DNA of 64,000 bases from Acholeplasmataceae bacterium. Its GTDB lineage: Bacteria; Bacillota; Negativicutes; Acidaminococcales; Acidaminococcaceae. The notes under the pieces were generated by a model that did not search any database, was not told the DNA's origin, and worked only from the letters and a program-made list of their open reading frames with translations. This document shows positions 9,000-47,502 of the stretch, in pieces; positions within the stretch are counted from its first letter, which is position 1; every line of letters begins with the position of its first letter. The stretch is from contig JAAYVM010000132.1 of NCBI GenBank assembly GCA_012517145.1, forward strand, positions 9,689 to 73,688. Reading direction: 5' to 3'. The translations under genes and the position numbers were made by a program.

Positions 9000-9069
9000 G
9001 TTCTCTGCGATTTCCGCATCTTTTGTATTTCATGGAGAAGGTATGACATTAGTAAAGGAGACTTTCTCA

Positions 9070-9555
9070 ATGCTGAACAGAATCCTGGTATCAATTGATG
9101 GCTCCCCGCTTTCATTCCAAGCATTAGATTTTGCGATGGGTTTAGGAGCGGCCTGTGGTAGTGAGATTATAGTTTTGCATGTGGCTGTTCCGTTTGATCT
9201 CTCCAAACTACATTCTTATGAAATGGAAAAACTTGAGGACGATATTTACGAAAAAATTAAAAAGAAAGCGACCAGCAAAGAAGAATTGACTGAAGACGAA
9301 AAATCCAAAGCAGAAGCGGGTGCTTTGGAAGTTGCAAAGAAAAAAGCTGCAGAAGCTGGCTATAAAACTATTTTATTTAAAGAAGTAATTGACAACGAAC
9401 CAGCCAAGACCATAGTTCATCAGGCGTCAATTCTGAAGGCTGATGCTATCGTCATGGGCACAAGCGGCCTTGGCTTGATGTCTGCCGCTTTGCTTGGCAG
9501 TGTCAGCGGCAAAGTTGTTTCAAGTGCTCCGTGCCCGGTAATTATTGTAAGATAA
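9070..9555 (+). CDS. Universal stress protein (type B copy 2)
   Basis: MLNRILVSIDGS...MGTSGLGLMSAALLGSVSGKV...PVIIVR. It has the same architecture as the 7958-8422 product, with a Lys/Glu-rich insert. The start at 9070 was chosen by homology to paralogue starts. Confidence 0.85.
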   Translation: MLNRILVSIDGSPLSFQALDFAMGLGAACGSEIIVLHVAVPFDLSKLHSYEMEKLEDDIYEKIKKKATSKEELTEDEKSKAEAGALEVAKKKAAEAGYKTILFKEVIDNEPAKTIVHQASILKADAIVMGTSGLGLMSAALLGSVSGKVVSSAPCPVIIVR

Positions 9556-9564
9556 GATTTCTTT

Positions 9565-9598
9565 AAAATCGTGCCGGTAAAAAACGGCACGATTTTTT
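9565..9598 (+). terminator. Intrinsic terminator between the fourth and fifth USP genes
   Basis: AAAATCGTGCCG-GTAAAAAA-CGGCACGATTTT followed by TT. Confidence 0.75.
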
Positions 9599-9617
9599 GT
9601 GTAAAAGGAGAGAAAAT

Positions 9618-10055
9618 ATGCTAAAGAAAGTTCTTGTATTAGTTGATGGCGCGGAGAACTCTTTTCGTGCACTGAATTATGCTATTGAATTATGTAAGTT
9701 GTCAGCGGGAGAGCTGATTGTAATGACTTCTGTAAAAACAGAGATGAAAGTAACCGCGGAAGCGGCTCCGCTTGATCAGGAATTACGTACGCAAGCCAAC
9801 AATGAGGCTGTTAAAACAGGCAATAAAGCACTCGGAAGCGCTAAAGCTGTTTTGGACGGCAGTGGTATCAGTGTGCAGTATATACTTGAATTTGGTTCGC
9901 CGGCAGCGATGGCGATGAAAACCGTTGAAAAATTTGAATGCGACACAATCGTTGTTGGTAGTCGCGGGTTAGGAACTATAAAAGGTATTCTCAGTGATAG
10001 CGTCAGTACAAAATTGGTGCAGGATGCACATATTCCTGTAATTGTCATAAAATAA
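9618..10055 (+). CDS. Universal stress protein (type C)
   Basis: MLKKVLVLVDGAENS...VGSRGLGTIKGILSDSVSTKL...PVIVIK. ATG at 9618 follows AAGGAGAG. Confidence 0.85.
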   Translation: MLKKVLVLVDGAENSFRALNYAIELCKLSAGELIVMTSVKTEMKVTAEAAPLDQELRTQANNEAVKTGNKALGSAKAVLDGSGISVQYILEFGSPAAMAMKTVEKFECDTIVVGSRGLGTIKGILSDSVSTKLVQDAHIPVIVIK

Positions 10056-10117: not shown

Positions 10118-10351
10118 TTAATATGATTTTTTACCAAGTACAGGATGTATGGTTGGTTCAAGGTGCAAACGCTTGGCAAGTTTTACTGCAGCCTCTAAAG
10201 GCAGGTCTTCTTTTCTTACACCGTCTTTTTCAAAGACACAGTAAGGGTTTTCGGAACCGACCTCACCGCCTGGCAAATAGATAAATTCTTTGTTTTCAGT
10301 ATCACCTAGGACAACGCCGGCAAGTAACTGCTCAGCCATAATTTTTGACAT
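10118..10351 (-). CDS. Hypothetical 77-aa soluble protein
   Basis: The ORF lies 21 nt downstream of corA on the same strand. I recognise no family. Confidence 0.45.
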   Translation of the reverse strand: MSKIMAEQLLAGVVLGDTENKEFIYLPGGEVGSENPYCVFEKDGVRKEDLPLEAAVKLAKRLHLEPTIHPVLGKKSY

Positions 10352-10372: not shown

Positions 10373-11323
10373 TCAGAACATGCGCCTTTTCCGGAGGAAA
10401 TAAGCGAAGGTTGCTGCAATAACAAGTGAAAGCAAGGCAACGATATAGAAGCCGAAGGAGTTATCTTTAAAAGGAACTGCCACGTTCATGCCCCAAAAAC
10501 TCGAAAGTACTGTTGGGATAGCCAAAATAATAGTCATTCCAGCTAAGAATTTCATTACCTCATTCATGTTATTGTTGATGATTGAAGCAAAAACCTCCAT
10601 CATGCTGTTTAAAATATGGCTGTACATCTCAACCATTTCAATTGCTTGCTTGTATTCAATGATAACGTCTTCTAATAGGTCTTCGTCCTCTTCGTACATT
10701 TTAATTAAATGCTGCAATTGGTTGGTGGAACGCAGCCGCAATATTTTTTCTGTAACAATATAATTACTGCGCAACGAAGCGGAGAAGAAGGTTAAAGATT
10801 TCCTTAAATCCAGCAGGTTGAACAAACCAGCATTTTCCATGGAGTTTCTGAGGTGCTGCTCCAATTCGTCGGTACGACGATTAATGTTACGAATGTATTT
10901 CAAATATAAGGTTGCAGATTTATAAAGAAGCTGGAAAAGGAAACGCGTCTTCTTAAAAGTGCTGAAGGTACGATAATTCATGGAGTTGAAATCTGCCAAC
11001 ACGGCGTTGACTTCCAGACAAACCGTTATGATGCAGTTAGCAGTTATTATAATACCCAAAGGCAGGGTGTCGTAATCATTGTTGCTGCGTAAAAGAGGTA
11101 TATCGATCAATATCAGTATCTGATCAGATTCCCACTCAATACGGGATTTTTCTTCATCATCCAAAGCTGCTGTCAAGTAATCAAGCTGTACGCCTGTGGC
11201 AGCGGAAATCTCCGTTAACTCTTCCATTGAGGGGCTTATAATATCAATCCATATGCCTTTTTCGAGCTGGTCCAACATCAGTTCGTCAATGCCATCAGCA
11301 CAACTTTTATAAATCTTGTACAT
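10373..11323 (-). CDS. corA: CorA-family divalent cation (Mg/Co) transporter
   Basis: C-terminal two TM helices with the GMN signature (SSFWGMNVAVPF). Size of 316 aa is typical. Confidence 0.9.
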   Translation of the reverse strand: MYKIYKSCADGIDELMLDQLEKGIWIDIISPSMEELTEISAATGVQLDYLTAALDDEEKSRIEWESDQILILIDIPLLRSNNDYDTLPLGIIITANCIITVCLEVNAVLADFNSMNYRTFSTFKKTRFLFQLLYKSATLYLKYIRNINRRTDELEQHLRNSMENAGLFNLLDLRKSLTFFSASLRSNYIVTEKILRLRSTNQLQHLIKMYEEDEDLLEDVIIEYKQAIEMVEMYSHILNSMMEVFASIINNNMNEVMKFLAGMTIILAIPTVLSSFWGMNVAVPFKDNSFGFYIVALLSLVIAATFAYFLRKRRMF

Positions 11324-11716
11324 TGGAACCCCTCCATTCTGCTTTTAATTTCGTTGGCGGCTACGCCGAAAAATTGTTTTATGAAAAAGATGTGGTCAAA
11401 GTCATGGTGCAGCAGCCTATGCAGTCAACCCTGAGAGGCTTTACACAGTTTCCCGTTGTTTTAGATATTTTAGAAATGCGGGAATAGTTGTTATTTTTTA
11501 ACCATTATTATATTCGACGAGGATAAATAAAATCCTTGTAAAATATTTAACAAGAAAATATTTTTATGTGTTAAATTCTGGTTGTTTAATAATACGTTAC
11601 TGTGGCAATTAGGCTTTTTTTTCTATTGTTTTGCTGATATAATACTAGATAAGTTTGTAGCAATGCAGAAGGGTAGTATGGAATTTATTGTTTTATCATT
11701 TGCGTAGAAGGGTAGC

Positions 11717-13141
11717 GTGGTGTTAATGTCTATTCAATTATTCATTGTTTGTGCGTACGTTGTTTTGCTTTTTGCCATCAGCTTGTTTGCCAAGAAGAGA
11801 GCAGACAAAGGGGCTTCAGAGTATCTGTTTGCGGGACGTAAACTTGGCCCTGGTCTTATAGCCGTCAATATTACAGGTCTCGCTGTCGGAGCGGCTTCGA
11901 CAGTAGGCGTTGCGGAAAATGCTTTCAGCGTTGGCTTGGCAGCTGGCTGGTATAATGCAGCCTGGTCTGCGGGTGCCTTGATCATGGGTCTTATCGCCGC
12001 AGGAAAATATCGTGCCTTGAAGGCTACGACTATTCCTGATTTATTTGAACGTTATTACGATACAAAAGGCAGAGTTGTCAGCGCTATTGGCCTCTTAATA
12101 ATTATGCTGGTCATCACTTCTTTGCAGTATCTTGCAGGCGGAGCAATTCTTTCCGCCCTCCTGCCCGACATTTTCTCTTTTAAGGGCGGCATGTTAACAA
12201 GTGCAGTCGTTTTTATTGGTATTACCTTGATTGGGGGACTCTGGTCTTCCGGACTTTCAAATATAGTAAGTGTTATCTTAATTTATGCTGGTGTTTTATA
12301 TTCTACCTATGCGGCAGTCGACAAGGTAGGTGGTATGACTGTACTGCTTAGCCAACTGCCTGCAGGTAAGGATTGGCTTAATCCGTTCGCTGGTTTGCCG
12401 ATGGCGATTGTAATAGGGTGGTTTGTGGTTATGATTACCCAGGCAATTACAGCTCAAGGACCTGTCCAGATAGCGTGTGGCGCTAAGGACTCGGCTTCGG
12501 CACGGAAAGGTTTTATCTGGGGAGCTGCGCTTATTTTCCCAATAGGTTTTTTATGTGCTTTAATTGGAATTGTTGCCCGAGTAACTTCTCCGAATATTAC
12601 TGCAACGATGGCGTTGCCAAGTGTCATTATGGGACTTGATCCTTTTGCTTCCGGTATAACTTTGGCAGCAATGTGGGCTGCCGATATTTCTACGGCCTGT
12701 ACAATTTTATTGGGGGCAGGGACATTGTTTTCCCAAGATATTTATAAACGTTTTATCAATCCAGGCATCTCTGGTGAAAAATTTCTTTTTGTTAACAGGG
12801 TAACCATATTCGTTTGTGGCCTTGGTACTTTGTGGTTGGCATTTAATGCAGTCGGTATCTTGAAAACAATGGTTGCTGGTTTAAGCCTTACGACTGCACT
12901 GACGGTTGTTTTCTTATTTACTATCTTTTTGCCGGCTGCCTGCCGCAGAAGCTCTGCCTTTTACACAACACTTGCGGGGTTGCTTGCTATTGTTGTTTGG
13001 GAATTTGTACCAGCTCTGCATGTTTTGAAACATGTAATTTATTTTGAATGGCTCGTTTGTGTTATAGTATTCCTTCTGGTTGCTGTCATCGACCAAAGAC
13101 CTATCAAGACACCGGAGTTAATCGAAGAAGAAGGTGAATAG
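11717..13141 (+). CDS. Sodium:solute symporter (SSS) family transporter
   Basis: About 13 TM segments with SSS-like N-terminal features (YLFAGRKLGP). The start is ambiguous (GTG 11717 or 11720, or ATG 11726). Confidence 0.8.
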   Translation: MVLMSIQLFIVCAYVVLLFAISLFAKKRADKGASEYLFAGRKLGPGLIAVNITGLAVGAASTVGVAENAFSVGLAAGWYNAAWSAGALIMGLIAAGKYRALKATTIPDLFERYYDTKGRVVSAIGLLIIMLVITSLQYLAGGAILSALLPDIFSFKGGMLTSAVVFIGITLIGGLWSSGLSNIVSVILIYAGVLYSTYAAVDKVGGMTVLLSQLPAGKDWLNPFAGLPMAIVIGWFVVMITQAITAQGPVQIACGAKDSASARKGFIWGAALIFPIGFLCALIGIVARVTSPNITATMALPSVIMGLDPFASGITLAAMWAADISTACTILLGAGTLFSQDIYKRFINPGISGEKFLFVNRVTIFVCGLGTLWLAFNAVGILKTMVAGLSLTTALTVVFLFTIFLPAACRRSSAFYTTLAGLLAIVVWEFVPALHVLKHVIYFEWLVCVIVFLLVAVIDQRPIKTPELIEEEGE

Positions 13142-13142
13142 T

Positions 13143-13574
13143 ATGCTTGATGACAAGCACACAAGCATTGATATTGGCCGTGCTGCTTTAAAAATCGCTA
13201 TTACAAGCAACCGCACGGAAGAACAACTAGTAAAGGAAGAATTAGCGTTGCAGGGAATACGTTCCACTGCAGTTGATTTTGGCGGTGAATTTATCCAGTC
13301 GATTGTAAAAATAGTCGAAAGAGCAGTCGTTGCTGCCCAACGCCAGGGAATAGTAACCAGCACACATGTAGGCGCCGGCGCTGTAGCCGGAGCAGCACAT
13401 GAAGCTTTGGAACAGGTTAAGGTGAAGGCAATAGGGTGTAATGTTGGCGGTAAAATCGGCATTGCCCGTTTTGATGAACACCTTTGTGTGGCAATTTTCA
13501 TGGGCGTGGGCGTTCTTAACTTAAATGAGTTATGCGTTGGCCTTGCGCATCGTTCGCTGGACAAAGTTGAGTAA
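13143..13574 (+). CDS. HutP-family RNA-binding regulatory protein
   Basis: About 143 aa. Block-wise similarity to B. subtilis HutP recalled from memory: IGRAALKIAI, KIVERAVVAAQRQGIV, AAHEALEQV, LCVAIFMGVGV..ELCVGLAH. The ATG lies 1 nt after the transporter stop. Confidence 0.7.
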   Translation: MLDDKHTSIDIGRAALKIAITSNRTEEQLVKEELALQGIRSTAVDFGGEFIQSIVKIVERAVVAAQRQGIVTSTHVGAGAVAGAAHEALEQVKVKAIGCNVGGKIGIARFDEHLCVAIFMGVGVLNLNELCVGLAHRSLDKVE

Positions 13575-13579
13575 GTTTT

Positions 13580-13621
13580 ACCCGTATGGTATTGTCAAAG
13601 GCGATGCTATACGGGTTTTTT
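13580..13621 (+). terminator. Intrinsic terminator between the HutP-like gene and sdaAB (candidate regulated terminator)
   Basis: ACCCGTAT ... ATACGGGT stem followed by TTTTTT. Confidence 0.7.
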
Positions 13622-13653
13622 AGTATAAAATATAGAGGCAGAGGTATAGTGTT

Positions 13654-14319
13654 ATGGATTTAATGGATGTAATCGGTCCTGTTATGATTGGACCTTCAAG
13701 TTCCCACACAGCTGGTGCCGTCAGGCTAGGACTTTTAGCTGCCAGTATTTTGGGCGAAAAGCCGGTGAAGGCAAAAATTGAACTGCATGGTTCTTTTGCA
13801 CAGACTTATCGTGGTCATGGTACCGATCTTGCATTGCTTGCCGGCCTTATGGGCTGGCTGCCGGATGATGCACGTATCCCGGAAGCAGGGACTTTCGCTG
13901 AGAAAAATGGCCTGGAATATAGCTTTACTAAAGTAAACCTTGGCGAATTGGCACATCCTAATACTGTGAGATTTAAATTAGAAGGTGAAAATGGTGCCGT
14001 GTGTCAGGTGACAGGGTCTTCTATTGGCGGCGGTCAGGTCAGTGTTACAGAAATTGATGATTTCCCAGTAGAACTGAGTGGCAGATTACCTGGCGTTTTA
14101 GTGCTGCACAGGGATCAATGCGGTGTGATTGCCCTGGTCAGCGGACAACTGGCGGAAGCGTGCATCAATATTGCCGGCATGCGTGTTTTCCGCACTGGCA
14201 AAGGTGGCCTGGCAATCATGATTATTGAGTGTGACCAAAAGGTTGCTCCGGATACTCTTGAGAAAATTACTCATTTGATGGCTGTCGAATCTGTGCGCTT
14301 TATAAATAATGTGCTGTGA
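13654..14319 (+). CDS. sdaAB: L-serine ammonia-lyase (iron-sulfur dependent), beta subunit
   Basis: N-terminus DVIGPVMIGPSSSHTAGAVRLG, an ACT-like C-terminal domain, and a size of 221 aa. Confidence 0.9.
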   Translation: MDLMDVIGPVMIGPSSSHTAGAVRLGLLAASILGEKPVKAKIELHGSFAQTYRGHGTDLALLAGLMGWLPDDARIPEAGTFAEKNGLEYSFTKVNLGELAHPNTVRFKLEGENGAVCQVTGSSIGGGQVSVTEIDDFPVELSGRLPGVLVLHRDQCGVIALVSGQLAEACINIAGMRVFRTGKGGLAIMIIECDQKVAPDTLEKITHLMAVESVRFINNVL

Positions 14320-14330
14320 GGTAAGCAAAA

Positions 14331-15221
14331 ATGGCAAAAGATAAACTTTCTCTGGCGGCCTGGATAGAGGAGTCAGAGAGAAAAGGTATTTCTTTAAGGG
14401 AAACTTTAATCGCGAATAATGCTAATGCAATGGGGGTTGAACCGCAGGTTCTTCTCAGTAAAATGGCTGATATGCTGAAAGTCATGCGTGCTTCTATCGA
14501 TTACGGCCTTACAGGGGTGCGCTCACGCAGCAAACTAACTGGAGGCAGTGCCAAAAAACTGTTCGAAGCTAAACAAGGCAACAATTATGCTAATATTTTG
14601 GGGCCGACAGTAAGTGATGCGGTAATATTTTCACTGGCTGTAGCTGAAGCAAATGCGGCAATGGGGCGTATTGTGGCGGCACCGACAGCTGGTGCCAGTG
14701 GTGTTTTGCCAGGAATGCTTTTTTCTCTGCAAAAGAATTATGCGTTAAGTGAAGAAGATTTAGCTGCAGGACTTGTGGTAGCTGGCGGCATTGGTCTGGT
14801 TATTGCCAATAGGTCGTCCTTGTCCGGAGCCATGGGGGGCTGTCAGGCTGAAACCGGCAGTGCAGCGGCCATGGCAGCGGGAGCTGCTGTCGATTTGCTG
14901 GGCGGTACACCTGAGCAAGTTGGTCAAGCGGTAGCGATGACAATAAAAAATATGTTGGGGCTTGTTTGCGATCCAGTAGCAGGTTTGGTAGAAGTTCCTT
15001 GTATCAAGAGAAATGCCGGAGCAGTCACGCAGGCATTGACGGCGGCACAAATGGCCTTGGCTGGCATTACCAGTTTTATTCCGGCTGATGAAGCAATTGA
15101 CGCTATGAAAGAAGTCGGTGACCGTATGCCTTGTGCTTTAAAAGAAACAGCAGGAGGCGGACTGGCTCATGCGCCAACAGCTTTGGCCTGGGCTGCAGAA
15201 TATTTCAAAGCTGGAGAATAA
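14331..15221 (+). CDS. sdaAA: L-serine ammonia-lyase, alpha subunit
   Basis: SDH_alpha motifs (VAAPTAGASGVLPG, GGCQAETGSAAAMAA, GLVCDPVAGLVEVPCIKRNA). Confidence 0.9.
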   Translation: MAKDKLSLAAWIEESERKGISLRETLIANNANAMGVEPQVLLSKMADMLKVMRASIDYGLTGVRSRSKLTGGSAKKLFEAKQGNNYANILGPTVSDAVIFSLAVAEANAAMGRIVAAPTAGASGVLPGMLFSLQKNYALSEEDLAAGLVVAGGIGLVIANRSSLSGAMGGCQAETGSAAAMAAGAAVDLLGGTPEQVGQAVAMTIKNMLGLVCDPVAGLVEVPCIKRNAGAVTQALTAAQMALAGITSFIPADEAIDAMKEVGDRMPCALKETAGGGLAHAPTALAWAAEYFKAGE

Positions 15222-15245
15222 CTAATTATCAGGAGGCAGAAAGAT

Positions 15246-15626
15246 ATGAAAAATGTAGTAAGTACAGAAAAAGCACCAAAAGCGATTGGCCCATATTCAC
15301 AAGCAATTGAAGCGGCAGGTTTACTTTTTTTATCAGGACAAATACCTATTGTGCCCGCAACAGGCGAAATCTGTGCAGGTGGTATAGAGGAACAGACCGA
15401 GCAGGTCTTGCTTAATATTGAGGCCATTCTTGCTACCAAAGGCCTTGGCTTTGCCGATGTTGTCAAGACAACAGTATTCTTAGCGGACATGAATGATTTT
15501 GCTACAGTTAATGGAATATATGCCAAAGCCTTTGTAGAAAATCCTCCTGCACGTTCCTGTGTACAGGTTGCCAGACTACCAAAAGATGTTAAAGTTGAGA
15601 TAGAAACTATAGCAGTTTGCAGATAA
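15246..15626 (+). CDS. ridA: RidA/YjgF-family enamine/imine deaminase
   Basis: 126 aa with [12 protein letters not shown]...GQIP...[19 protein letters not shown]. Confidence 0.9.
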
Positions 15627-15671: not shown

Positions 15672-15700
15672 TTGACACTCTCAAGTGTCTATGGTACAAT
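15672..15700 (+). promoter_or_regulatory. Sigma-A promoter of the tRNA operon
   Basis: TTGACA, a 17-nt spacer, then TACAAT, about 38 nt upstream of the first tRNA. Confidence 0.7.
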
Positions 15701-15737
15701 AATTTTCGTCGCCAAGCTATTAAAGTTTGGTCAATTT

Positions 15738-15815
15738 GGTGGCTGTGGTGAAGCGGTTAACACGGCGGATTGTGGCTCCGTTATTTCGTGGGTTCGATCC
15801 CCACCAGTCACCCCA
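15738..15815 (+). tRNA. tRNA-His (GTG)
   Basis: Hand-folded cloverleaf with the extra 5' G(-1) paired to the discriminator C, anticoden-loop sequence TTGTGGC, T-loop GGTTCGATCC, and an encoded CCA. Confidence 0.85.
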
Positions 15816-15839
15816 CAATTTTTAGTTGTTGCCTATCTT

Positions 15840-15915
15840 TGGGGCGTCGCCAAGTCGGTAAGGCACGGGACTTTGACTCCCGCATGCGTTGGTTCGAGTC
15901 CAGCCGCCCCAGCCA
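15840..15915 (+). tRNA. tRNA-Gln (TTG)
   Basis: Acceptor TGGGGCG/CGCCCCA, anticodon loop CTTTGAC, T-loop GGTTCGAGTCC, and an encoded CCA. Confidence 0.85.
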
Positions 15916-15918
15916 TGT

Positions 15919-15994
15919 GATCCACTAGCTCAGTCGGTAGAGCACCTGACTTTTAATCAGGGTGTCCCGCGTTCGAGTCGCGGGTGGATCACCA
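15919..15994 (+). tRNA. tRNA-Lys (TTT)
   Basis: Acceptor GATCCAC/GTGGATC, D-arm TAGCTCAGTCGGTAGAGC, anticodon loop CTTTTAA, and an encoded CCA. Confidence 0.85.
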
Positions 15995-16016
15995 TTTTTT
16001 TTATAATTTTCATGCC

Positions 16017-16101
16017 GCGGGAGTGGCGGAACTGGCAGACGCACTAGACTTAGGATCTAGCGCCGTGAGGCGTGCAGGTTCGATTCCTGTCTCCCGCACC
16101 A
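16017..16101 (+). tRNA. tRNA-Leu (TAG)
   Basis: Acceptor GCGGGAG/CTCCCGC, a long variable arm (GCGCCGTGAGGCGT), anticodon loop CTTAGGA, and an encoded CCA. Length is 85 nt. Confidence 0.85.
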
Positions 16102-16114
16102 ACTAAACAAGCTA

Positions 16115-16147
16115 AAGGCTTCTCAGGGAAACTGAGAAGCCTTTTTT
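16115..16147 (+). terminator. Intrinsic terminator of the tRNA operon
   Basis: AAGGCTTCTCAG-GGAAA-CTGAGAAGCCTT followed by TTTT. Confidence 0.85.
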
Positions 16148-16399
16148 ACTTTGCAAACATTCTTATTTAAAATTCTGGTTTTAGACAATATTGCACTTGC
16201 TAATCAACTGTAAAGGTGATAGAATTCAGACAAACCAGCTTTATTTATGGACACTACATTTGGAGCGGAGCCCGGTCCTTGTTCTGGCTTTGCAGAAATT
16301 TATAGACCAAGCTAAGTATGGCTATTTATTGTTTAAAAAAGTTATTTCTCCGTTCATTTGCATTTTCAGATAAATCAGCCCTTTGAGAGGTGCCGGCAA

Positions 16400-17083
16400 A
16401 TGTATATCTATACAAATAAAATATTCCACAAGCATACTTCACTTATCTTTACGTTACTAGGAGCGGCTTCGGCTTCAATTGCTTTCTTGATCCAGCGGCT
16501 TAGTGAAACCTATTATCCGAGTATGCGAGATGTTGTAGTCTATTTTGCAATAGTTCTTTTTGCTATTTTTGGCGCAATAATCGGCAAAATGATTTATGAG
16601 CTTCATTATATGGCGATGTTCGATTTTTTGACAAAATTAGGCAATCGTTGGTATTTCAATATACGGCTTACTCAAGAAATTGAAAGAAACAGGCGCGGAA
16701 ACTATTCTGTCTGCGTTGCGGCAATAGATGTTGATAATTTCAAACAGATAAACGATCAACTAGGCCATTACGCCGGTGATGCAGTCTTAGTGAATATATC
16801 GAATATCTTTCGGAAATACACCCGCAATCTGGATGTTGTAGCCCGTTGGGGCGGTGATGAGTTTGTTATAATATTCCCTGATACTGATATAAAAAGCTCA
16901 TTGGAAATTACAAACAAACTGAAAGATGTTGTGCTGGAAAGTGAAGAGTGCGGCATTGCTACTGTAAGTATCGGCGTAGTAGCAATTAACAGGGATTGGG
17001 ATAAGAAACAGGTTATCAGAGAAGTTGATTTAATGCTGCGCGCAGCAAAGAAAACAAAGAATTCCGTTGTTTCTCTTGCCTAA
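16400..17083 (+). CDS. Membrane-anchored diguanylate cyclase (GGDEF domain)
   Basis: Two N-terminal TM helices, a GGDEF active site (RWGGDEFVIIF), and an RxxD I-site (RNLD) 5 residues upstream. ATG at 16400 follows GAGAGG. Confidence 0.85.
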   Translation: MYIYTNKIFHKHTSLIFTLLGAASASIAFLIQRLSETYYPSMRDVVVYFAIVLFAIFGAIIGKMIYELHYMAMFDFLTKLGNRWYFNIRLTQEIERNRRGNYSVCVAAIDVDNFKQINDQLGHYAGDAVLVNISNIFRKYTRNLDVVARWGGDEFVIIFPDTDIKSSLEITNKLKDVVLESEECGIATVSIGVVAINRDWDKKQVIREVDLMLRAAKKTKNSVVSLA

Positions 17084-17172: not shown

Positions 17173-17304
17173 ATTAGATGTAAATCCTTGCCGAAATATA
17201 AACGATTCCTGACTAATTGCATGATATACTTGTGACTAGCGTGGATAGGATAATGAAATGATGTCTGTAAGTAAAATATCCAAGAAGTATTGGGGGCGGA
17301 ATTA

Positions 17305-18474
17305 ATGCAAAGTAAATTTGCTTTTTCTAATATTTTTATCATTGGTTTGGTAAGCCTTTTTATTGATATGAGCACGGAAATGGTTTATCCGCTGATACCT
17401 TTGTTTTTAACGACGAATCTCGGAGCAACCCCTGCGATTGTCGGCGTGATAGAAGGCATAGCAGAATGTACGGCCTCGTTGCTGAAAGTATTGAGCGGCT
17501 ACATAGGTGATGTTTACCAGAATAAGAAAAAGCTTACGCTTATTGGCTACTCCGCTGCTATTGTCTACAAAGTGTTCTTGTTGATTGCAACCTCCTGGAC
17601 GGGGGTTTTAGCTGCCAGGGTAATAGACCGCATCGGTAAGGGCATCCGAGTAGCGCCTCGTGATGCTCTGGTAGAAGAGTCAAGTGAGAAAAATAAACTG
17701 GGGCGCTCTTACGGTTTGCACAAGATGCTCGATATGGTTGGCTCGGCATTAGGCGTTCTGCTTGCTTATTTCATAATTACCAATAATGTTGACTTTGAAA
17801 CTGCGTTTTTATATTCGATAATACCTGCGATAATCGGTGTTCTTATGATAGGCGGCGTGCAGGAAAAGGTCGGCGGCAAACGCGATACCCAGAAGTTTAC
17901 GCTGAAGGGTGTACAGCTTGACAGAAGACTGAAGCTTTATCTGGGGGCAATGTTTATCTTTTGCCTCGGCAATTCATCCAACGTCTTTTTGCTTCTGCGT
18001 GCCAAGGATTGCGGTTTTTCACCTTCAGAGGTGATCTTGCTTTATCTGGCATTTAATGTATCGGCATCCTTGCTGTCCATGTTTGCCGGAAAATTATCTG
18101 ATAAGGTTGGCAGAAGAAGAATTATTGTCCCCGGATATCTCGTTTTTGCTTTAGTGTATCTGGGTTTTGGTTTACTATCCAGCAAATTGGCTATCATCAT
18201 ATTGTTTATTGCTTATGGTGTTTATACTGCTTTCAACACAGCTGCCGAAAGGGCTTTTATTGCTGAGACGGCTCCAGACAATCTGAAAGGCACAGTCCTT
18301 GGGGTGTATGGTATGCTGCAAGGTGTAGGACTATTGCTTTCTTCAATTATTGCCGGCTTATTGTGGGATTATGTCGATCCCAGTGCTCCTTTCTTGTTCG
18401 GTGGTATGGTAGGCTTCATAGCTGCGATTGCCATAACCTTTATATTGGGTGAAGACAGGGTGAAAACAGTATAA
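17305..18474 (+). CDS. MFS transporter
   Basis: About 12 TM segments and MFS loop motifs (DRIGKGIRVAPRDA, LSDKVGRRR). Confidence 0.85.
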   Translation: MQSKFAFSNIFIIGLVSLFIDMSTEMVYPLIPLFLTTNLGATPAIVGVIEGIAECTASLLKVLSGYIGDVYQNKKKLTLIGYSAAIVYKVFLLIATSWTGVLAARVIDRIGKGIRVAPRDALVEESSEKNKLGRSYGLHKMLDMVGSALGVLLAYFIITNNVDFETAFLYSIIPAIIGVLMIGGVQEKVGGKRDTQKFTLKGVQLDRRLKLYLGAMFIFCLGNSSNVFLLLRAKDCGFSPSEVILLYLAFNVSASLLSMFAGKLSDKVGRRRIIVPGYLVFALVYLGFGLLSSKLAIIILFIAYGVYTAFNTAAERAFIAETAPDNLKGTVLGVYGMLQGVGLLLSSIIAGLLWDYVDPSAPFLFGGMVGFIAAIAITFILGEDRVKTV

Positions 18475-21211: not shown

Positions 21212-21265
21212 CTCTGCAAAGACGCTTAAATACTAGCTTTTGCTTGTTGGTAAGTTGTGTGCATT

Positions 21266-21274
21266 TGTGGATAA
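21266..21274 (-). promoter_or_regulatory. Perfect DnaA box (TTATCCACA on the minus strand)
   Basis: The plus strand reads TGTGGATAA, an exact 9 of 9 match, in the same orientation as the first box and 63 bp from it. Confidence 0.6.
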
Positions 21275-21338
21275 AACCTTGACTGTTAGTGTATTGATGA
21301 ATATTCAGAAAAATCATTCTGCGATTAATGGAGGTATC

Positions 21339-22730
21339 ATGGCGAAAAGTTTCTTATCCAAAGAACAGATAAATCTGCTTAATTCTTGCATGGCTGGCGC
21401 TAATCTGGCAGCAGATATTGCTCATGCGCATGTATATCTCTATGTGCGCGACGAAGATCCGAAGTATATCAACGTCTATGGTCAGGCTCTGCCGCTTAAG
21501 GAGTTTGTGACACATTCAGCTAATATTACCGGGCGTAAGCTCAGGCTGGCAGAAGAACCTTTGGTCGGACGTACCATGCAGAGCGGTACGGTTGTCACGG
21601 GTAAGCGGGAAAGCATTCTAGGTTTTTTTGCTAAGATAAAGTTATTTCCTTTGCTTGATAAAAAAAGTCGTTGCTATGCAGTAATTGCCTTCGAAAAGAA
21701 TGGCGCAAACGGTGAGGAAGACGATGATATCTTCATCGATATAGCATTGGAACTGATGCTGAATTTTGAACAGAGATTTTCGACTGAACCAAATTACAGG
21801 CGGCTTTCGCCAAGTGACGGCATCATGATTGTCGATAAAGACAAGATTATCGTTGCTGCCAGCAACACAGCTCGTCATATACTTTCACTGCTCGGTGTAC
21901 CCAAACCGGTCGGCCTGCGTACCAACAGCCGGCAGATCAACTGGCCGTTGGTCGGTATGGTTATCAAGGCAGGTATTGCGGAAAGCAAAGAGGTCAAGAA
22001 ACAGGGCTTACTTTTGTCAATCAGAGTATTGCCTTTAACGCCCAAACAGGATACGCAGGCTGCCATCGTTGTTTTGACAGATATTACTGAACTCAAGAAG
22101 AAAGAAGAAGAACTGCTGGTCAAATCGGCAGTTATCAAGGAAATTCATCACCGAGTAAAAAACAATCTGCAGACCATTGCAAGCTTGCTCAGGATGCAGA
22201 CAAGACGTACAGAGGATGAAAATACCAAAAATATTTTGCGCGATATTATCGGCAGAATAAACAGCATAGCATTGGTCCACGAGGCTCTTTCGCAGCAGGA
22301 CAGCGATGTTGTGAATGTTGCTGAGGTAGCGGAACGCATTTATCAAGCGATAATAACGAGTATGGTAATGCCAGATTTTAAATTAGAAAGCAGTTTTTCT
22401 GCCGACGAACTTATTTTGCCGTCAGAGCAGGTAACAGCTATAGGATTGATTTTGAATGAATTGTTGCAAAATGCTTTGGAACATGGCTTTGAAAATTGCA
22501 CCAGCGGCAAAATGACAGTTGCTCTCAAAGTGAGACCGTATTGTTATTCGCTGGAGATAACAGATGATGGTGTTGGACTTCCTCCGGGTTTTGAAATTGG
22601 ACAAACTAATAGTTTAGGGCTTAAAATTATACAAACGATGGCTGAAGCTGATCTACACGGCACCTTTGAACTGCTGCCCTTAGAAAAAGGGACATTGGCC
22701 CGCGTAGAAGTACCAATAAGGAGAGAGTGA
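21339..22730 (+). CDS. Soluble sensor histidine kinase (HisKA_2/PdtaS-like)
   Basis: H-box EIHHRVKNNLQTIASLL, N-box ILNELLQNALEHGF, G-box DDGVGLP, and no TM segments. ATG at 21339 follows GGAGG. Confidence 0.85.
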   Translation: MAKSFLSKEQINLLNSCMAGANLAADIAHAHVYLYVRDEDPKYINVYGQALPLKEFVTHSANITGRKLRLAEEPLVGRTMQSGTVVTGKRESILGFFAKIKLFPLLDKKSRCYAVIAFEKNGANGEEDDDIFIDIALELMLNFEQRFSTEPNYRRLSPSDGIMIVDKDKIIVAASNTARHILSLLGVPKPVGLRTNSRQINWPLVGMVIKAGIAESKEVKKQGLLLSIRVLPLTPKQDTQAAIVVLTDITELKKKEEELLVKSAVIKEIHHRVKNNLQTIASLLRMQTRRTEDENTKNILRDIIGRINSIALVHEALSQQDSDVVNVAEVAERIYQAIITSMVMPDFKLESSFSADELILPSEQVTAIGLILNELLQNALEHGFENCTSGKMTVALKVRPYCYSLEITDDGVGLPPGFEIGQTNSLGLKIIQTMAEADLHGTFELLPLEKGTLARVEVPIRRE

Positions 22731-46482: not shown

Positions 46483-47502
46483 TTATTTCTTGAGCGCTTT
46501 TTCTAATAAACTGGTATTTACAACCTGTGCTGAATCCAGTTTGCCGTTTATCATATTATGAGAGCTATACCAGTCAATCTGTGTTTTAATGTCGCTGTCA
46601 AGCAGTTTGCCGTTGCGGTCAATATACGGCAAGCCTAATTTTACGTCTTCAACAGGTGCGTTTGTATATTTGGCAATAATTTTGATTACTTCGTCTAATT
46701 TCTCAGGAGACTTTTTATCAATAGCTGCATCGTAATAATAATTGCAGGCTTTGACATAAGCACGTAAGAAACGAACAGCAACATCTTCTTTTTTCACAAA
46801 ATCCGGTGAGAAGAAGAGGGCGGAAGTCTGATAAGGAATAACATCGCCAACCTGAGTAATGACTTTAGCGTAACCTGCTGTTTGCGCTTTGGTTATATTT
46901 GGTTCATTCAGTATGCAGGCATCGATTTGCTTGCTTTCCAAAGCGGCCATAATGGCACTTAATTTGCCAAGCGGAACAAGTTCAACATCGGCAAGGGTCA
47001 GGCCCTTTGTCTCTAAAAGCCTGCCAATCATATAATGGAAGGTAGAGCCGATTTGAGTTATCCCAATACGTTTACCTTTCAGACTTTCTATCGAATTCAC
47101 GCCTGCGGCGTAGGCGTCACTGTTTGCCAGAAGCGCGGAAGAAGGGAAGCCTTTTTCTTCGCGGCCTTTATCCGCTACGATTGCCAGTTTTTGATTTCCG
47201 GCAGCCATGTTGAATAAACTCGCTGTGATGCCTGTCGCACCAACATCAACCTTAGAAGAGGCTGTTGCCACGGCAATTGGGTGCGCAGCATCAAACCATT
47301 GGGGTTTGACTTCAAGATTTTCTTCAGCAAAAAAGCCTTTATCAAGCGCAATGAAAAGTGGGGCTGAGCTGGTCAATCGGAGCATAGCCAATGAGACCTG
47401 AGCCTTTTCTTTCGGCGCGTCCTTCTTTGTTTCATTCTTACTGCAGCCGGCAAAAACAAGTGACATACAAAGTGCCAGCAGCAAGGCAACAACTTTTTTC
47501 AT
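46483..47502 (-). CDS. ABC substrate-binding lipoprotein (NMT1/THI5-like, NitT/TauT family)
   Basis: Lipobox VFAGCSK and SsuA/NMT1-like features. ATG at 47502 follows AAGGGGGA. Confidence 0.8.
   Translation of the reverse strand: MKKVVALLLALCMSLVFAGCSKNETKKDAPKEKAQVSLAMLRLTSSAPLFIALDKGFFAEENLEVKPQWFDAAHPIAVATASSKVDVGATGITASLFNMAAGNQKLAIVADKGREEKGFPSSALLANSDAYAAGVNSIESLKGKRIGITQIGSTFHYMIGRLLETKGLTLADVELVPLGKLSAIMAALESKQIDACILNEPNITKAQTAGYAKVITQVGDVIPYQTSALFFSPDFVKKEDVAVRFLRAYVKACNYYYDAAIDKKSPEKLDEVIKIIAKYTNAPVEDVKLGLPYIDRNGKLLDSDIKTQIDWYSSHNMINGKLDSAQVVNTSLLEKALKK

Follow-up and report, generated by a model that had tools for sequence, protein, structure and literature searches.

A gene for a HutP-family protein lies within an apparent L-serine catabolic operon on contig JAAYVM010000132.1 of assembly GCA_012517145.1, in a stretch of 64,000 nucleotides that was analysed as a whole (hereafter the window). 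On balance, we lean towards the view that this protein is a HutP-fold, RNA-binding, TRAP-like autoregulator that recognizes the 5′ leader RNA of its own operon, and not the hairpin located downstream of its gene. The leader carries tandem G-N-A-G repeats with a strict 8-nt period, and these repeats recur with the regulator gene in related genomes.

Tandem G-N-A-G repeats in the operon leader

Two clusters of repeats precede the first gene of the operon, which encodes an SSF-family symporter, on the + strand of the window. Site I (positions 11657-11676) comprises three G-N-A-G units with an 8-nt period, GUAG-caau-GCAG-aagg-GUAG, and is followed, after a 27-nt linker, by site II (11704-11715), GUAG-aagg-GUAG. 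The latter covers the purine-rich ribosome-binding region and lies directly 5′ of three candidate symporter starts (GTG 11717, GTG 11720 and ATG 11726), among which ATG 11726 is probably the true start, judging by N-terminal homology (MSIQ...). The predicted promoter, read from the sequence, is an extended -10 box, TGATATAAT (11635-11643, + strand, with the hexamer at 11638-11643). A two-hexamer promoter scan did not detect this box; a TG-n-TATAAT or TATAAT box is present at the equivalent position in nearly all related leaders. The operon transcript would probably start near 11649-11651.

A genome scan of the GTDB species representatives detected at least 588 relatives. Of these, the best 80 loci were combined with three Phascolarctobacterium contigs into a set of 83 loci, whose gene neighbourhoods were compared by tblastn and clustering, with annotation of the key clusters. 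Forty-three distinct leaders were anchored on the conserved symporter start (MSIQ). Chains of three NAG triplets separated by spacers of exactly 5 nt occurred in 34 of these 43 leaders, versus 2.7 ± 1.7 (maximum 8) in dinucleotide shuffles, and no excess of such chains was found in the same leaders at spacers of 2, 3, 4, 6, 7 or 8 nt. The consensus of the repeat unit is G-[U>A,C]-A-G-N-A-U-G, with a G preceding the triplet in 58 of the 62 units. In most leaders the promoter-distal cluster ends 7-12 nt before the ATG and thus overlaps the ribosome-binding region; the consensus of this cluster in Phascolarctobacterium is GUAGCAUGGAAGAAAGGUAG.

The strict pattern, three consecutive G[UCA]AG-N4 units, has two matches when both strands of the 64-kb window are searched, where 0.15 are expected. 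The first is site I; the second, at 47130, is antisense within an open reading frame and was dismissed as a chance occurrence. Across 1.64 Mb of related loci, searched on both strands, 42 strict matches were identified, with 30 in defined leaders, 8 in leaders whose downstream open reading frame had an over-extended start, and 4 elsewhere; leaders account for about 1% of the sequence searched. It is the regulator gene, and not the symporter, that the motif accompanies: a locus without an SSF gene (L037) has UAG-N5-CAG-N5-CAG ahead of its HutP-like gene, and the stand-alone genes of Veillonella and Acidaminococcus have UAG-N5-UAG adjoining their own ribosome-binding sites. No Rfam family was matched in the leaders or around the downstream hairpin, the matches returned being tRNAs, a T-box before Dialister thrS and an L20 leader.

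The window leader also contains a nine-codon mini-ORF (MEFIVLSFA, 11678-11707), with its AUG in the site I spacer and the UAG of site II as its stop codon; the decamer AGAAGGGTAG precedes both this frame and the symporter start. Its interpretation as a leader peptide was set aside, as the ATG is part of the conserved repeat spacer (UAUGG) of all relatives, and the frame is probably a by-product of the repeat consensus.

A remote HutP homologue with an altered ligand site

The candidate RNA-binding regulator is encoded by an open reading frame of 143 aa (13143-13574, + strand) and matched the Pfam HutP profile PF09021 with E=3.1e-42 and 144.3 bits (cut-off 25), its residues 11-137 covering profile positions 1-128 of 128. 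A single-sequence phmmer search against all PDB sequences returned no HutP match, and a profile of the subfamily found Geobacillus HutP (4ok9) at E=5.6e-5. The AlphaFold single-chain model, built with eight homologues, reached a pLDDT of 91.5 and a pTM of 0.86. When this model was compared with the PDB using Foldseek, the eleven best matches were all HutP chains (TM 0.68-0.77, 17-25% identity, E down to 9.5e-8), and matches past these eleven had TM below 0.5. By these matches the model has the HutP fold, a four-stranded antiparallel sheet flanked by helices. The window protein is therefore a real but remote HutP homologue belonging to a divergent Negativicutes subfamily, and the family assignment previously made from the letters and translations of the window (the sequence-only reading) is borne out by both the Pfam score and the fold. 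Proteins 77-97% identical to it, from metagenome-assembled genomes of Acidaminococcaceae and Phascolarctobacterium, are named "HutP family protein" in databases, with no function attached. Judged by the names of its homologues, the window organism belongs to the Acidaminococcaceae, class Negativicutes.

Residues of the ligand site were mapped by HMMER profile alignment to 4ok9, with B. subtilis numbering taken as Geobacillus numbering minus one. In HutP, Mg2+ is reportedly held by His73, His77 and His138, with L-histidine as co-ligand, as described by Kumarevel and colleagues in 2005. In the alignment, H73 corresponds to G79 of the window protein, H77 to G83, and H138 to E129, with N128 adjacent; R88 is replaced by V94, and E81 is kept as E87. 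The same replacement of H73 and H77 was seen in the multiple alignment for P0265, a canonical-looking member. Judged by these correspondences, the canonical L-His/Mg2+ site is lost in the window protein, as an earlier by-eye comparison had proposed, and a different effector, or none, would therefore be expected. The region containing the subfamily-invariant residues N100, G102, G103, K104 and R109 aligns to T99-R108 of HutP.

Gene order in the window and in related genomes

The operon runs along the + strand in the order symporter, HutP-like gene, hairpin, sdaAB, sdaAA, ridA, exactly as the sequence-only reading had laid it out. The symporter frame (11717-13141) gave a full-length match to Pfam SSF (E=5.8e-26) and ends in a TAG stop codon, after which a single nucleotide precedes the ATG of the HutP-like gene at 13143. 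Downstream of that gene and an intrinsic-terminator-like hairpin with a U6 run (13580-13622) lie sdaAB (13654-14319), for the beta subunit of iron-sulfur L-serine ammonia-lyase with an ACT domain (TIGR00719, 209 bits against a cut-off of 161; Pfam SDH_beta and ACT), sdaAA (14331-15221), for the alpha subunit (TIGR00718, 295 bits, cut-off 243), and ridA (15246-15626), for a Rid-family enamine/imine deaminase (TIGR00004, 176 bits, cut-off 106). In NCBIfam the symporter obtained superfamily-level matches alone, under every equivalog cut-off, and no substrate-specific model was matched. A second HutP-like gene was not found in the window, and no hut-type domains were present among the ten large window frames screened, in agreement with the earlier remark that hut genes are missing here.

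Of the 83 loci, 42 have an SSF gene immediately 5′ of the HutP-like gene. The complete series SSF, HutP-like, sdaAB, sdaAA, ridA recurs in about 34 loci, all confined to Acidaminococcaceae/Phascolarctobacterium, and Pelosinus and Sporomusa keep the SSF/HutP-like pair without sda. The proposed association of the regulator with serine catabolism is thus real yet clade-specific, and the SSF transporter is a more constant partner than sda. In 18 loci of Dialister/Veillonellaceae, the HutP-like gene lies 3′ of thrS (TIGR00418, 753 bits), either 1 nt apart or overlapping it; a T-box leader precedes thrS, and a terminator followed by an L20-leader/infC operon is located 3′ of the HutP-like gene. This translationally coupled arrangement is seen in L058 and L065-L083 (for example L075 3754-6438). 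The copies of Veillonella and Acidaminococcus stand alone. Distant clostridial members, about 40-55% identical, are flanked by genes for malic enzyme and a phosphonate-type ABC transporter, lie 3′ of an RpiR regulator gene, or precede cytidylate kinase (L085 3819-6309, L084, L088). The repeat motif is missing from these distant members, which suggests that the family has diversified to other targets. Clustering placed no hut genes beside the HutP-like gene in any of the 83 loci, although not every cluster was annotated.

Predicted terminators and antiterminators in related leaders

The window leader has no significant secondary structure (z=-0.08) and no terminator. In Pelosinus and Sporomusa, where the repeat-containing leaders extend about 200 nt upstream of the SSF gene, an intrinsic terminator is present between the upstream repeat clusters and the cluster at the ribosome-binding site (L031, L038, L040, L041, L043, L048). 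When the 3′ arm of the terminator was withheld from RNAfold, UAGGAUGGCA was predicted to pair with the terminator 5′ arm UGCACUCCUA in the Pelosinus leaders L031, L038, L040, L041 and L043. For Sporomusa (L048), a different antiterminator was predicted, at -21 kcal/mol, with GUAG-N4-GAAG-N4-GCAG as its 5′ strand. By these purely thermodynamic predictions, the repeats overlap the 5′ strand of the antiterminator in 6 of the 7 Pelosinus/Sporomusa leaders folded; a protein bound to them would therefore favour termination, following the logic of TRAP.

A TRAP-like model and competing interpretations

By analogy with HutP, the regulator would form a hexamer, each face of which may bind three G-N-A-G units at the 8-nt period. 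Sites I and II together would wrap the region that contains the ribosome-binding site of the symporter gene, and binding would most likely lower expression of the whole operon by blocking translation initiation, with consequences for the regulator gene, which is translationally coupled, and for the genes downstream of it. In Pelosinus and Sporomusa, binding would stop the antiterminator from forming, so that the terminator would be favoured. The effector may be a small molecule other than histidine, perhaps the transporter substrate (an amino acid such as serine or threonine), and possibly there is none. Serine or threonine is put forward as a hypothesis from the genomic context, namely sdaAB/sdaAA, ridA, thrS and a DAACS transporter in Acidaminococcus, the last of which is not an SstT equivalog (68 bits versus a cut-off of 308).

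We extend this model, with more reserve and at a strength slightly short of probable, to a class of Negativicutes HutP-fold attenuators that would respond to a non-histidine effector (plausibly serine, threonine or the SSF substrate), act in a TRAP-like manner on GNAG leader repeats, and control amino-acid uptake and, in Acidaminococcaceae, L-serine deamination. On this wider reading, the thrS-coupled copies of Dialister would link the sensor to threonyl-tRNA charging.

Several observations weigh against the model for the window operon. The repeat period is 8 nt, versus 7 nt (UAG plus four) in the model RNA crystallized with HutP, and a G precedes each NAG. No NAG repeats were found upstream of thrS in Dialister or near the distant clostridial members; for Dialister, any RNA target would therefore have to lie in trans. 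Shared ancestry inflates the repeat counts, many leaders being from closely related species. In Phascolarctobacterium, a conserved upstream segment, UAUUACCG, can base-pair with part of site I, so that some of the conservation could reflect RNA structure. RNAalifold applied to the Phascolarctobacterium leaders gave an invariant P1 helix only, with no compensatory changes; in the underlying MAFFT alignment, the variable hairpin that follows site I was misaligned. The antiterminator of Pelosinus is a weak one, with a total of -9 to -13 kcal/mol for the alternative fold, and in L038 pairing between the U-rich tail of the terminator and the ribosome-binding region is also possible, which would leave room for an activating role. 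It would, moreover, be unusual for a catabolic operon to be repressed by its own substrate.

The last two points lead to the best-placed alternative, which we nevertheless judge unlikely: the leader repeats are the target, and binding activates expression, for example through the opening of a structure in which the ribosome-binding site is hidden, or through mRNA stabilization, with the effector acting as inducer. Uptake and catabolic operons are usually induced by their substrates. HutP itself is an activator (PMC2425495), the predicted pairing in L038 involves the ribosome-binding region together with cluster C, and a protein bound to Phascolarctobacterium site I could remodel inhibitory structures formed with the conserved upstream segment. 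Against activation, the window leader lacks significant structure that could be melted, the purine-rich ribosome-binding region is itself covered by the repeats, and the upstream clusters of Pelosinus and Sporomusa overlap the antiterminator strand, not the terminator, which would result in termination upon binding.

Less probable still is the interpretation that the HutP-like protein does not regulate the leader at all, the repeats being a structured RNA element or a binding site for some other factor, and the protein a small-molecule-binding accessory to the transporter or to amino-acid metabolism. Such a role would fit a gene that is translationally coupled, beginning 1 nt after the symporter stop codon here and directly following the thrS stop codon in Dialister, that occurs in contexts as diverse as thrS/infC, malic enzyme, RpiR and cytidylate kinase, that is without nearby repeats in Dialister and the clostridial members, and whose product has a remodelled ligand site. 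The repeats, however, follow the HutP-like gene even where the symporter is missing, and HutP targets are characterized by three-unit NAG clusters at a distance of about 25-30 nt; in addition, the leader matches no Rfam family, and single-stranded RNA binding is the only known activity of the fold.

The hairpin between the regulator gene and sdaAB

The strong hairpin and U-run previously noticed downstream of the regulator gene are indeed present. The stem (13580-13616) comprises 17 pairs with a 3-nt loop and is followed by TTTTTT; the RNA has a folding energy of -25.5 kcal/mol (z=-4.5), unmatched by any of 200 shuffles. No sigma-70-like promoter was found between the hairpin and sdaAB, so sda expression in the window organism would depend on read-through. 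Termination at the hairpin probably affects a sizeable fraction of transcripts.

In 21 of 28 distinct related loci, the gap between the HutP-like gene and sdaAB is 6-24 nt and contains no hairpin; such a gap is too short for a terminator, accommodating no more than the stop codon, the ribosome-binding site and the start codon. A long spacer was found in seven loci (the window, L004, L005, L001, L011, L006 and L037), and the stem beginning ACCCGUAUGG is common to only three of these, namely the window, L004 (identical) and L005 (with a shortened stem and a weaker U-run). The spacers of L001 and L011 form an unrelated hairpin with a poor U-run, and those of L006 and L037 differ again. No NAG or G-N-A-G repeats with the 8-nt period of the family were found around the hairpin (13540-13660). 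Because 21 of the 28 relatives leave no room for one, a terminator between regulator and cargo cannot, on this comparison, be the conserved mode of action of the subfamily. A connection of the regulator to read-through at the hairpin was sought, and nothing was found. We regard the hairpin (13580-13622) as probably a lineage-specific internal terminator or attenuator that sets the ratio of transporter and regulator transcripts to enzyme transcripts, and not as the site of the regulator.

The sequence-only reading had proposed an antitermination switch here, in which a HutP-like protein activated by serine or a related amino acid binds near this terminator and allows read-through into sdaAB, sdaAA and ridA; despite the strong hairpin with its U6 run, the need for read-through that follows from the missing promoter, a layout that mimics hutP, terminator, hutH (PMC12591593), and a left arm containing GUAUGGUA, which resembles the spacer of the leader repeats, we consider this improbable, given the short hairpin-free gaps of most relatives, the restriction of the stem to three loci while other long spacers carry unrelated hairpins mostly without a proper U-run, the lack of 8-nt-period G-N-A-G repeats or any regular three-NAG cluster in or beside the hairpin, and the position of the conserved repeats in the 5′ leader.

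Comparison with HutP and TRAP

The closest characterized system is HutP of B. subtilis and Geobacillus (1wpv, 1wmq, 4ok9), the hexameric, L-His/Mg2+-activated antiterminator of the hut operon, which belongs to the same Pfam family, has the same fold and is of similar size (about 145 aa). As with HutP, the window gene lies inside the operon that it presumably controls. HutP binds two clusters of three NAG triplets about 20-30 nt apart, one on each hexamer face (PMC2425495; PMC12591593), and the candidate target described here likewise consists of two (N)AG clusters of fixed spacing, 25-30 nt apart, resembling HutP sites I and II (PMC2425495). The differences are nevertheless considerable. Identity is 17-25%, too low for phmmer to see the relationship; R88 and all three histidines that bind Mg2+ in HutP are substituted; the neighbouring genes are SSF, sdaAB, sdaAA and ridA instead of hutH, hutU, hutI and hutG; and the repeats have a period of 8 nt, not 7, with a conserved G before each NAG. 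Instead of lying within a terminator that separates regulator from cargo, the clusters are found at the ribosome-binding site of the 5′ leader, and whereas HutP destabilizes a terminator, the repeats of the relatives overlap an antiterminator, implying the opposite outcome.

In that outcome the proposed mechanism resembles TRAP, whose RNAs have been compared with those of HutP (PMC2425495). As we reconstruct it, a ring protein would sense an amino acid, bind tandem (G/U)AG repeats in a leader and block the antiterminator so that the terminator forms. The last repeat of most leaders lies 7-12 nt before the ATG, and site II of the window adjoins the start codons, so that the repeats overlap the ribosome-binding site. 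TRAP likewise binds over ribosome-binding sites, for instance at the transporter gene trpP. It differs in its unrelated fold, an 11-mer beta-sandwich ring, in its use of eleven repeats with 2-3-nt spacers, and in controlling biosynthesis in trans from a gene encoded elsewhere in the genome.

In the literature searched, we found no description of a link between the HutP family and serine dehydratase or Negativicutes, of such leader repeats, or of the symporter, sda and thrS associations of "HutP family protein" genes. The earlier view of the system as uncharacterised accordingly stands, together with the family assignment, the lost histidines and the operon; the regulatory site was placed wrongly, and probably so was the direction of control. 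To our knowledge, HutP has so far been regarded as an isolated case, one regulator for one operon in Bacillus. Should the leader repeats be bound by the Negativicutes subfamily, the HutP fold would be a broader platform for metabolite sensing and RNA control, with a new effector specificity, a new repeat geometry and a TRAP-like outcome that would make a clear case of convergent mechanism. Phascolarctobacterium and its relatives are abundant gut bacteria whose regulation is almost unstudied, and the model, if correct, would provide a handle on their uptake and catabolism of an amino acid, probably serine, and would point to the substrate of the uncharacterised SSF transporter. With every functional step deduced from comparison, the system is a putative, testable RNA-protein regulatory module, apparently undescribed so far and widespread across the Negativicutes of the gut.

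Other genes near the operon

A gene for a CorA-family Mg2+ transporter (10373-11323, - strand) lies divergently upstream of the operon, a placement kept in most Phascolarctobacterium loci. Beyond it, an open reading frame of 77 aa (10118-10351, - strand) has no Pfam match; at the corresponding place, locus L001 has a 79-aa frame with a TSCPD domain. Two tandem paralogues of Usp, the universal stress protein, occupy 9043-10055.

Directly 3′ of ridA is a tRNA cluster, His-GTG, Gln-TTG, Lys-TTT and Leu-TAG (15672-16144). It is served by a near-consensus promoter of its own (TTGACA-17-TACAAT with TG), and its terminator, at 16114-16144, looks bidirectional. L009 carries this tRNA block, too, 3′ of the operon. 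Further downstream, a gene for a small membrane-anchored GGDEF diguanylate cyclase (16358-17083) is followed by one for an MFS transporter (17290-18474). A histidine kinase with a PdtaS-type GAF domain and HisKA_2 is encoded at 21240-22730; such kinases usually pair with an ANTAR antiterminator response regulator.

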